In this document: positions 25,591 to 28,500 of the stretch, one piece after another
How the letters are laid out: each line of letters starts with the position of its first letter
How positions within the stretch are numbered: the first letter of the stretch is position 1
Assembly (NCBI RefSeq): GCF_000026545.1
Contig: NC_011601.1
Origin: Escherichia coli O127:H6 str. E2348/69
Lineage (GTDB): Bacteria; Pseudomonadota; Gammaproteobacteria; Enterobacterales; Enterobacteriaceae
DNA: 64,000 nt
Strand: one strand, 5' to 3'
Position numbers: made by a program

Positions 25591-28500
25591 AGTGACACCA
25601 AGGAAGCGGACTACGTTCTCTATGATGGCGATGGCCTTGAGCTACTTATCAAATCCAGCGGGAGTAAAATCTGGCAGTTTCGCTACATTCGCCCTGTCAC
25701 CAAGAAACGTGCGAAGAAGAGCATAGGCCCCTACCCGTCAGTTACGCTTGCCGATGCCAGAAACTACCGGGCAGAGTCACGCTCTCTCCTGGCGAAACAA
25801 ATCGATCCACAGGAACATCAGCAAGAACAACTTCGCAGTTCGCTTGAAGCTAAAACCAATACTTTCCAACTCGTGGCTGAACGATGATGGAATGTGAAGA
25901 AAGCCAGCGTGACAGAGGACTATGCCGACGATATCTGGCGCTCTATTGAAGAGATGTCTTTCCTGCAATTGGCGACGTTAGCGTTACAGATATTAAAGCT
26001 CACACACTGGTTCAGGCCGTCCAACCGGTTCAGGCCAGAGGAGCAAAACCGTTTGTCGCCTGTGCCAGCGCATTAATGAGGTCATGACCTATGCCCAAAA
26101 CACATGGCTGATTGATGCTGTTCCCAGCGTTAATATTGGTAAAGCCTTCGAGAAGCCTCAGTAAAAGAACATGCCCAGCATTCGACCGGATCAGCTACCT
26201 CAACTGATGCAGACAATGCGAACAGCCAGCATTAGCCTTTCCACACGCTGCCTGTTCATGTGGCAACTTCTTACTATTACCCGCCCTGCCGAAGCGGCTG
26301 AAGCTCGCTGGGAAGAGATAGACATAGAAGCACAAGAGTGGAAGATTCCTGCAGCACGCATGAAAACGAACCGCGACCATACTGTTCCATTGTCAGATGA
26401 AGCAATTGCGATACTGGAGATGATGAAGCCGTTAAGTGGAAATCGAGAATTTATCTTTCCCAGCCGCATCAAGCCAAACCAGCCGATGAACAGTCAGACC
26501 GTAAACGCATAGCTAAAACGCGCAGGTTTTGGTGGGGTGCTCGTTTCACACGGCCTGCGATCTATCGCCAGTACAGCCCTTAATGAACAAGGCTTTCCGC
26601 CTGATGCCATTGAGGCAGCACTTGCCCATGTAGACAAGAATGAAGTTCGTCGCTCTTATAACCGCAGCGATTACCTGGAGCAGCGTCGTCCAATGATGCA
26701 GTGGTGGACGAATTTTGTTCAAGCGGCAGATCGTGGAAGTATTATTGAAGGTGGGATGAAAGGAATGCGATTGGTTGGATAACGATTCACTCTGCCTACG
26801 TTATTACAAATAGCGTCCGATTAGAGGTGTGATTCATAGACATCGTTTCAATTTTCTCAGTTCAAGTTCAAGCTTGTAATTCTGTTCCTGTATATGCTCT
26901 TCATTGGGCTGATACTTTGCATGAACGGCATCGGAGTATGGTGTTTTCTCAGCAAGTTCAAAGTAGCGCTCCATCGGAGTTTTACCGTTGTGAGCGCTAT
27001 GAGGACGTTCCCAGTTATAGTAATGCTGCCATTCTGCCTGCAGTTCCTTCAGGTCATCAGCAGAAAGATCTACGGTAGCGTAAGACTCTGCTTTGTCTGT
27101 CTTTTGGGAACGTTCAACCTTTCCGTTAAGATGAGGTGACGCTGGCTTATTTGGACGAAACTTGATGCCGTATTATTTTAATCTTTCCTGCACTTTAACG
27201 GCAAAAAATTCTCTTCTCCGGTCTGTCTGAGAGCGCTATATCGGGAAAGGCATTTCTTCAATAACACAATCAATAAAATCCAGTGAGTTTACCGCCGTGC
27301 GACAAGAGTAGAGCCTCAGGACTCTGTAGCGAGTGCAATCATCAACAGATGTGTACTGATATAAGCCGGGGCCAATTTTACAGGTATCCATCTGAACCCG
27401 ATCACCGGGAACAGGGCGTTCGTAGCGAATGAAATCAACTTCACGCCGAAATTTAACAACAGGTTTAACCTGATTCTGGCAAAGGACTTTGTGGATTGTT
27501 GCTATTGCCAGTGAGTCGTTTTAACTCGCTTTGAATACGTCTTGCACCCAGATTTCGCTGAGAACGTAACTCCAGAATCAGAGCGACTTCGCAAGTACCG
27601 GTTTTCGTTGATGGTGAACGCTTGAGGCGACGGCATATAAATCCCGCATCACCGGACGTTTCATAGAATTTTACCCACTGTAGCCGCTGCTGAATTTCCC
27701 TGTACATAGTGAGGTATTATAGTGAAACGATGTCTATGAATCACACAATTCAAAAATGACGATCAAACAATTCTGTGAACAGGAACATATTCTGGTGTCC
27801 ACAGAAGGTCATTTTACTGGTGTAACGGATGAGGTACTGGCTGAGTTAAATCTCAAGCGACGTGTCGGTATTCTGTTAACAGCTTTTTGGTGATACCAGA
27901 CATATTACGATTAACTGACATGATTGCTGTTGTACCCAGCCGTATGGTCCCGAACAACAGTGACCTTACTATCATTCCCTTACCGATTAAAATTCCAGGC
28001 TTCACTAAAAGCATGGCGTGGCACGAGCGTACTCATCATGATCCAGCCCATCAATGGATTCGCGCTTTGTGCTTTGAGATAAACCAGTACTCCACAACGG
28101 TGATATAAGTTTTCTTATTCAGATCATAAAGAATAACGATTGGCATTATAACACAATAATCTCAATAATTGTTGCTGCCACATTGAATACGGCTTCTGAA
28201 GCAACATGCTCAGCACAATTAATTACCGTAACTGGAGAAATTTATGAACGAGATTAACTGGCCTGAAGGTTTTGTTCCTGGTTTTACTGATAACTTTGTT
28301 TCCAATGAAATGATTATCTCTGGTCTTAATGTTAAAGATATCTGGCCGCTTCTGAGTCAGCCATTCCTGTGGCCAAAAATTGTGCTGATATTCGCTTTTA
28401 CGATAACAAAAAGCCAGAACTGGAAAATGGGGTGCGTTTCTATTTCAAAACCTTTGGTTTTCCTGTTGAAGCTCAGGTTGTGGAGTTTGTCCCACCGATG

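Follow-up and report, generated by a model that had tools for sequence, protein, structure and literature searches.

A defective ISEc18-like insertion sequence of the IS481 family in the EspC island of Escherichia coli E2348/69

The region described here belongs to the chromosome of the enteropathogenic Escherichia coli (EPEC) O127:H6 str. E2348/69 (contig NC_011601.1) and was analysed as one stretch of 64,000 nucleotides, in the following referred to as the window. Its gene order reads smpB, ssrA, an IS21 pseudogene (istA/istB), an integrase pseudogene, the defective insertion sequence (IS) which is the subject of this study, a LysR fragment, an SRPBCC pseudogene, espC and a gene with an EspG domain. 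Together with the position of the ssrA transfer-messenger RNA, placed at 23022–23384 by an Rfam scan of the whole window, this gene order locates the element within the EspC island integrated at ssrA. RefSeq labels the element a pseudogene for an "integrase core domain-containing protein", noting a frameshift and an internal stop.

A repeat search returned a 24-nt inverted repeat with arms at 26827–26850 and 27723–27746, which are 100% complementary and spaced by 872 nt. Even at a tolerance of 3 mismatches, the 24-mer occurs at exactly two sites in the window, where 100 shuffles give an expectation of 0.00. Between the arms, open reading frames (ORFs) of 80, 51 and 46 amino acids are found on the minus strand, and represent one transposase in pieces, distributed over two frames. 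Repeat search and ORFs thus confirm the preliminary description of the locus, which had been made from the sequence without database searches and had reported perfect 24-bp inverted repeats around 920 bp of fragmented transposase frames. The further interpretation given there, namely that the repeats are IS termini and that the transposase is dead, is supported as well; the repeats are no part of another structure, as dozens of other genomes have 1-kb IS481-type elements enclosed by identical ends. After addition of the outer terminal base pair to the 24-mers, the whole element comprises 922 bp (26826–27747, transposase on the minus strand) and can be aligned over its full length with IS481-family copies of 1018/1020 bp. 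The repeat at the 3′ end of the transposase gene (26827–26850, plus strand) is the right inverted repeat in IS orientation and lies on the left in the window; the natural transposase stop codon TGA (minus strand, 26834–26836) sits within it. The left inverted repeat in IS orientation lies upstream of the transposase gene (27723–27747, minus strand) and has the canonical 25-bp sequence TGTGTGATTCATAGACATCGTTTCA, matched at 100% by a 43-nt end probe including the terminal base. The transposase start codon ATG (27707–27705) follows a TATAAT box and is located 16 bp inward of this repeat. The 920 bp match the E2348/69 chromosome at 100%, and three E2348/69 chromosome records (CP059840.2, LT827011.1 and LT903847.1) are 100% identical over the element and 500 bp on each side; given these identical records, sequencing error is an unlikely source of the observed sequence.

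In order to define the true ends, every element with both ends available was compared, drawn from the E. coli loci and from 55 loci of an exact 24-mer scan with one genome per species. In 20/20 other distinct insertion sites the next base outward of the 24-mers is a T at one end and an A at the other, and the true terminal repeat is therefore 25 bp long with the termini 5′-TGT...ACA-3′. In the window copy the right end carries the canonical A at 27747. The outermost base of the left end (26826, alignment column 1020) is a G in place of the T present in all 20 other sites, giving the terminus GGT for TGT, with CC-3′ replacing CA-3′ on the transferred strand, and leaving this end intact at 24/25 positions. 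In DDE enzymes of the IS3 and retroviral types the terminal CA-3′ lies where cleavage and transfer take place. Exact 7-bp target duplications flank four independent insertions of relatives (L004, L005, L007 and L031). For the window copy no target duplication was found at any length from 2 to 26 bp, with mismatches allowed. Such an absence is expected after rearrangement (PMC11708052) and concerns the history of this copy, not its family membership.

As the window copy itself retains mere fragments of the 323-amino-acid transposase, a consensus protein of this length was rebuilt from an alignment of four copies, that of the window and three longer ones from E. coli. The rebuilt consensus scores 255.2 bits on the NCBIfam model NF033577 "IS481 family transposase" (cut-off 224), while the IS3 model yields 80.8 bits and stays below its cut-off of 160. 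Its Pfam domains are HTH_28, HTH_32 and HTH_29 and, after these, rve and rve_3. Intact relatives are 1020 bp long, harbor one unbroken coding sequence for a 323-amino-acid transposase with helix-turn-helix (HTH) and DDE parts, end in 25-bp terminal repeats and are flanked by a 7-bp target duplication. The transposase is encoded in a single ORF lacking the programmed frameshift of the IS3 type, as required for membership in the IS481 family. With IS481 of Bordetella pertussis and its family they share this single-ORF HTH and DDE transposase passing the NCBIfam IS481 model, a length of about 1 kb, the TGT...ACA termini and a short target duplication inside the family's range; for the family, duplications of 2–15 bp are on record, and related IS481EU elements show the same TG..CA / TGT..ACA signature (PMC10045372). 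They differ from it in that this subgroup duplicates 7 bp whereas most members duplicate 6 bp (PMC10045372), and in that the 25-bp terminal repeat of the subgroup is found unchanged in very distant hosts.

Within the family, many intact 323-amino-acid relatives are present in a large protein collection, and the closest cluster includes proteins named "IS481-like element ISEc18 family transposase" by NCBI. Among complete E. coli genomes, those of strains C41 and CFSAN061761 have intact 1018-bp copies with the 323-amino-acid gene, at a distance of 28 and 34 substitutions, respectively, from the window copy; these form with it a sub-lineage (97–98% identity) apart from the copies labelled ISEc18. 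The latter, taken from strains SCU-105 and RS571 as labelled in RefSeq, show 77–79 substitutions in 922 bp relative to the window copy (about 91.5% DNA identity), and between the C41 transposase and that of the SCU-105 ISEc18, identity is 95% and similarity 98%. By the convention of ISfinder, isoforms share more than about 90% DNA identity or more than 95% protein identity. The ISEc18 copies (RefSeq/PGAP: WP_001315005.1, WP_001347735.1) have identical 25-bp terminal repeats and likewise contain one ORF that begins just inside one repeat and has its stop codon within the other; the full-length relatives of the window copy are equal to them in length, with 1018 bp between the 24-mers. Differences concern the window copy alone, which is 98 bp shorter (87 + 11 bp), has two stops and an altered terminal base and lacks a target duplication. 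The family, which the preliminary description had proposed to name by comparison with reference elements, is thus IS481, and the element probably an isoform of ISEc18. In papers that mention it, ISEc18 appears to be no more than an entry in mobile-element screens.

Alignment to the intact copies reveals the lesions of the transposase gene. An 87-bp in-frame deletion, bounded by short GTCGC direct repeats and with its junction at 27630–27636, takes out most of the N-terminal HTH region; this junction is private to the chromosomal copy. An 11-bp deletion with its junction at 27515–27516 shifts the frame. Translation of the alignment further identifies two nonsense codons, a TAG in the catalytic core at 27236–27238 (CAG in intact copies, alignment column 608) and a TAA at 27173–27175 (GAA in intact copies, column 671), along with several missense changes. 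Loss of function would have come about through the two deletions, the two nonsense mutations and the substitution of the terminal base at one end. The feature is almost certainly an inactivated IS481-family element, an isoform of ISEc18, residing in the EspC island at ssrA and by now inert DNA inherited with the island. Neither its type nor its setting is new: it is a RefSeq-annotated pseudogene of a catalogued IS, in a much-studied strain and island.

The perfection of the two 24-bp arms is in agreement with this assignment. Ten substitutions in 922 aligned positions (1.1%) are private to the window copy, being absent from every other E. coli copy compared. At this divergence the 50 repeat nucleotides should have taken 0.54 changes, against one observed, namely the terminal base; the probability that all 48 nt of both arms stay unchanged is about 0.6. 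The closeness of expected and observed values indicates that the arms are perfect because inactivation was recent and not because the ends have been maintained. By these counts, decay of the repeats keeps pace with that of the remainder of the element. Too little time would have passed for the 48 nt to mutate, possibly aided by gene conversion with plasmid copies.

The distribution of the element was determined in 5,426 complete E. coli genomes. An 80-bp probe over the junction of the 87-bp deletion gave full matches in exactly 19 records, all of them chromosomes, once each. The same 19 chromosomes, again once each, contain full matches to the element with 500-bp flanks, and the right flank alone (27747–28700) is restricted to these 19 genomes, where it always adjoins the IS. 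As junction, flanked element and right flank all coincide, every known 920-bp copy occupies one and the same locus in 19/5,426 genomes. The right-flank search recovered no empty or uninterrupted site among the 5,426 genomes. Within E2348/69 the 43-nt end probe hits two places on the chromosome, corresponding to both ends of this element, and two on the plasmid pMAR2, corresponding to the ends of the pMAR2 copy, which is annotated as frameshifted with an internal stop. An intact copy with these ends is accordingly absent from the E2348/69 chromosome and from pMAR2, the small third plasmid not being separately covered. The search for intact copies suggested in the preliminary description therefore leads to a single further E2348/69 copy with these ends, that of pMAR2, and it is a pseudogene too.

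The copies closest in sequence to the window copy are found on plasmids, namely on pMAR2, the EPEC adherence factor (EAF) plasmid, and next to espT, at a distance of 12–16 substitutions. Besides the 19 chromosomes, four plasmid records have the junction of the 11-bp deletion: pMAR2, p2022H047-1, p2022H048-1 and pZ1323HEC0423-2, with two copies on the last. The strains behind these four records also have the chromosomal copy. The pMAR2 and espT-adjacent copies resemble the window copy not only in this deletion but also in being pseudogenes without target duplications, and p2022H047-1 additionally has both stop codons. They differ from it in their loci, in the presence of the 87-bp HTH segment and in the canonical terminal T.

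The plasmid copies bear traces of recombination. The pMAR2 copy adjoins bfpL and has the same flanks as copies on pZ1323CEC0015-2 and pZ1322HEC0010-2, which are only 4–6 substitutions away from it and do not have the 11-bp deletion. The existence of orthologous deletion-free copies at the bfpL site implies that the insertion there is older than the deletion. The p2022H047-1 copy is identical to the window copy at every variable site in alignment columns 555–877, including both stop codons, and differs from it at 11 variable sites in columns 38–542 and at the terminal column 1020, which results in a block pattern. Furthermore, the flanks of this copy, the single one next to espT on p2022H047-1, match those of different pZ1323HEC0423-2 copies, on the left those of one and on the right those of the other (L079, L081 and L082). 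Such hybrid flanks are the product expected from recombination between two IS copies, and one of the two plasmid architectures (pZ1323HEC0423-2 or p2022H047-1) therefore arose from the other when two dead copies of the IS recombined. The lesions common to chromosome and plasmids fit gene conversion or recombination between IS copies better than mobilisation in trans, which was rejected as their cause on account of the deletion-free bfpL orthologues, the block mosaic and the hybrid flanks. The co-occurrence of the four deletion-bearing plasmids with the chromosomal copy in the same strains likewise favours gene conversion.

Two readings nevertheless assign a role to a transposase acting in trans. 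According to the first, copying in trans once spread the 11-bp-deleted form between chromosome and virulence plasmids in the EPEC lineage, giving the same dead allele at three or four loci. This is very improbable; if true, defective ISEc18-like copies would constitute a small non-autonomous family, which could be re-mobilised by an incoming plasmid-borne ISEc18. The second reading regards the element as a non-autonomous derivative resembling a miniature inverted-repeat transposable element (MITE), mobilised now or recently by a functional ISEc18-type transposase, and deserves slightly less credence still. Inactivating lesions are indeed common to copies at different loci, the 11-bp deletion being present on the chromosome, on pMAR2, in the espT-adjacent copies and in a second pZ1323HEC0423-2 copy, and p2022H047-1 sharing both stop codons as well, but these are better explained by gene conversion. 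The perfection of both 24-bp arms would suit a mobile derivative, yet the terminal base of one end is altered. Intact ISEc18-type transposases, in circulation on the chromosomes and plasmids of E. coli, could be acquired by the strain; no helper, however, was found in E2348/69 on the chromosome or on pMAR2, both elements there being pseudogenes, so that a functional cognate transposase in the same genome, as would characterise a MITE-like system, was not seen. Elsewhere in the clade there are indeed deletion derivatives which retain both ends, one of 608 bp (L026) and one of 56 bp (L061). In E. coli, instead of several internally deleted copies at different loci with duplications, as a MITE-like element would display, the 87-bp-deleted form occupies one locus in 19/5,426 genomes, once per genome, and neither the window copy nor the plasmid copies have a target duplication.

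The proposal in the preliminary description that intact ends keep the element mobilisable in trans is consequently unsupported: the left end matches at 24/25 positions, no helper was found on the E2348/69 chromosome or on pMAR2, a single locus is occupied, no duplication is present and the arms fit neutral decay. Nothing suggests that the window copy has moved since its inactivation.

The least probable alternative would make the repeats components of some larger functional structure (island boundary, attachment site or end of a composite transposon), or would give the remnant a new role, such as that of a promoter. It draws on the location of the element between the integrase pseudogene and the cargo of the island and on the TATAAT box just inward of one repeat; against it, the same 24/25-bp ends bracket 1.0-kb IS481-type genes in unrelated contexts (E. 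coli, Serratia, Legionella, Caballeronia, Verrucomicrobia and others), no second copy is present in the window and both neighbouring genes are themselves pseudogenes. A larger characterised structure, named in the preliminary description as the finding that would speak against IS termini, is thus not what the repeats belong to. A promoter and terminator scan of 26700–27900 gave 1 site against 2.1 expected by shuffling, which is not above background, and no Rfam family was located within the element in the whole-window scan, whose sole hit was the ssrA tmRNA.

The surroundings of the inactivated IS are likewise degraded. On its left, an EspC-island P4-type tyrosine integrase pseudogene (25564–26782, plus strand) with Arm-DNA-binding and Phage_integrase fragments ends 44 bp before the IS and is split into at least three frames. 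Between this pseudogene and ssrA, directly after the latter, lies the IS21 pseudogene with a long istA-like ORF on the minus strand (24120–25511). The island's own integration machinery is dead (window 23022–26782). On the right of the element, a 5′-truncated and frameshifted fragment of a LysR-type regulator (27756–28108, plus strand) comprises only the tail of the substrate-binding domain (profile positions 146–204 of 209), and the IS abuts its truncation point. Because the target duplication is absent and the element abuts a 5′-truncated LysR gene, the element would mark an old rearrangement breakpoint, brought about by an IS-adjacent deletion or by recombination between two copies. Recombination or gene conversion between copies can account for both the missing duplication and the truncated LysR fragment.

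Some points weigh against the assignment of the element as an inactivated ISEc18 isoform, or against parts of it. The name ISEc18 is borrowed from RefSeq/PGAP labels of related copies and should be read as provisional. The rearrangement history is inferred only, with no empty site and no uninterrupted LysR homologue in the 5,426 E. coli genomes. The G at 26826 may be a point substitution or the edge of a deletion, and its presumed effect on transposition is deduced by analogy, while in IS2 one natural end without the CA-3′ consensus still takes part in transposition (PMC3299598).

The ends of this IS occur far beyond E. coli. The exact 24/25-bp repeat was found unchanged in Legionella, Burkholderia/Caballeronia, Verrucomicrobia, Desulfovibrionaceae, Parachlamydiaceae and Neisseriaceae as well as in metagenome-assembled genomes (MAGs) of Selenomonadales and Collinsella (L024–L078), for example at L033 2334–3370, L069 1286–2311, L035 495–1526 and L052 4–1036. 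The transposases at these loci are merely about 50–65% identical, and both ends are still perfect in L033 (61% amino acid identity) and L069 (64%). The scan selected on one exact end, and only the second end is independent evidence; with this restriction the terminal repeat seems far more conserved than the transposase protein. In a Desulfovibrionaceae MAG (JAQVCS01, L036–L044) the exact repeat lies in nine stretches on seven contigs, about 100–125 bp from one stretch end, a pattern that might arise from assembly breaks at a relative of this IS, multi-copy and presumably active. Contigs that encode either of two intact transposases are mostly repeats of a few insertion sites and add little on target duplications.

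Reduced forms are also observed. A 608-bp derivative in a Francisellaceae MAG (L026 5989–6596) is internally deleted: it retains its two ends, with 0 and 2 mismatches, but of the transposase just the C-terminal half, and is like the window element in kind. In Legionella maceachernii (L061 2428–2483) a 56-bp palindrome, present in a single copy, consists of two 25-bp terminal repeats joined by the 6-bp sequence AATTAA and is either a minimal derivative with its entire interior deleted or a footprint. Hundreds of E. coli genomes, many of them O157:H7, O145, O26, O111 or O103, contain once each a 340-bp internal fragment of the IS (positions 641–980 of the 1018-bp form, 97.9% identical) which is annotated as 'helix-turn-helix domain-containing protein' and represents a further remnant of this IS lineage, likewise fixed.

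Several proteins of 404–410 amino acids named DruA (Druantia) fall into the 90%-identity cluster of the ISEc18 transposase. An ISEc18 copy directly adjoins druA in strain RS571 and in several metagenome contigs (L008 3356–4570 and L019–L023). This adjacency is real, whereas the cluster membership of DruA looks like a clustering artefact.

As a routine IS pseudogene the element in itself matters little. The breakpoint which it would mark, together with the dead integrase and IS21 genes, is consistent with an immobilised EspC island. For IS remnants, it serves as a caution that perfect-looking terminal repeats do not prove that such a remnant can still be mobilised.
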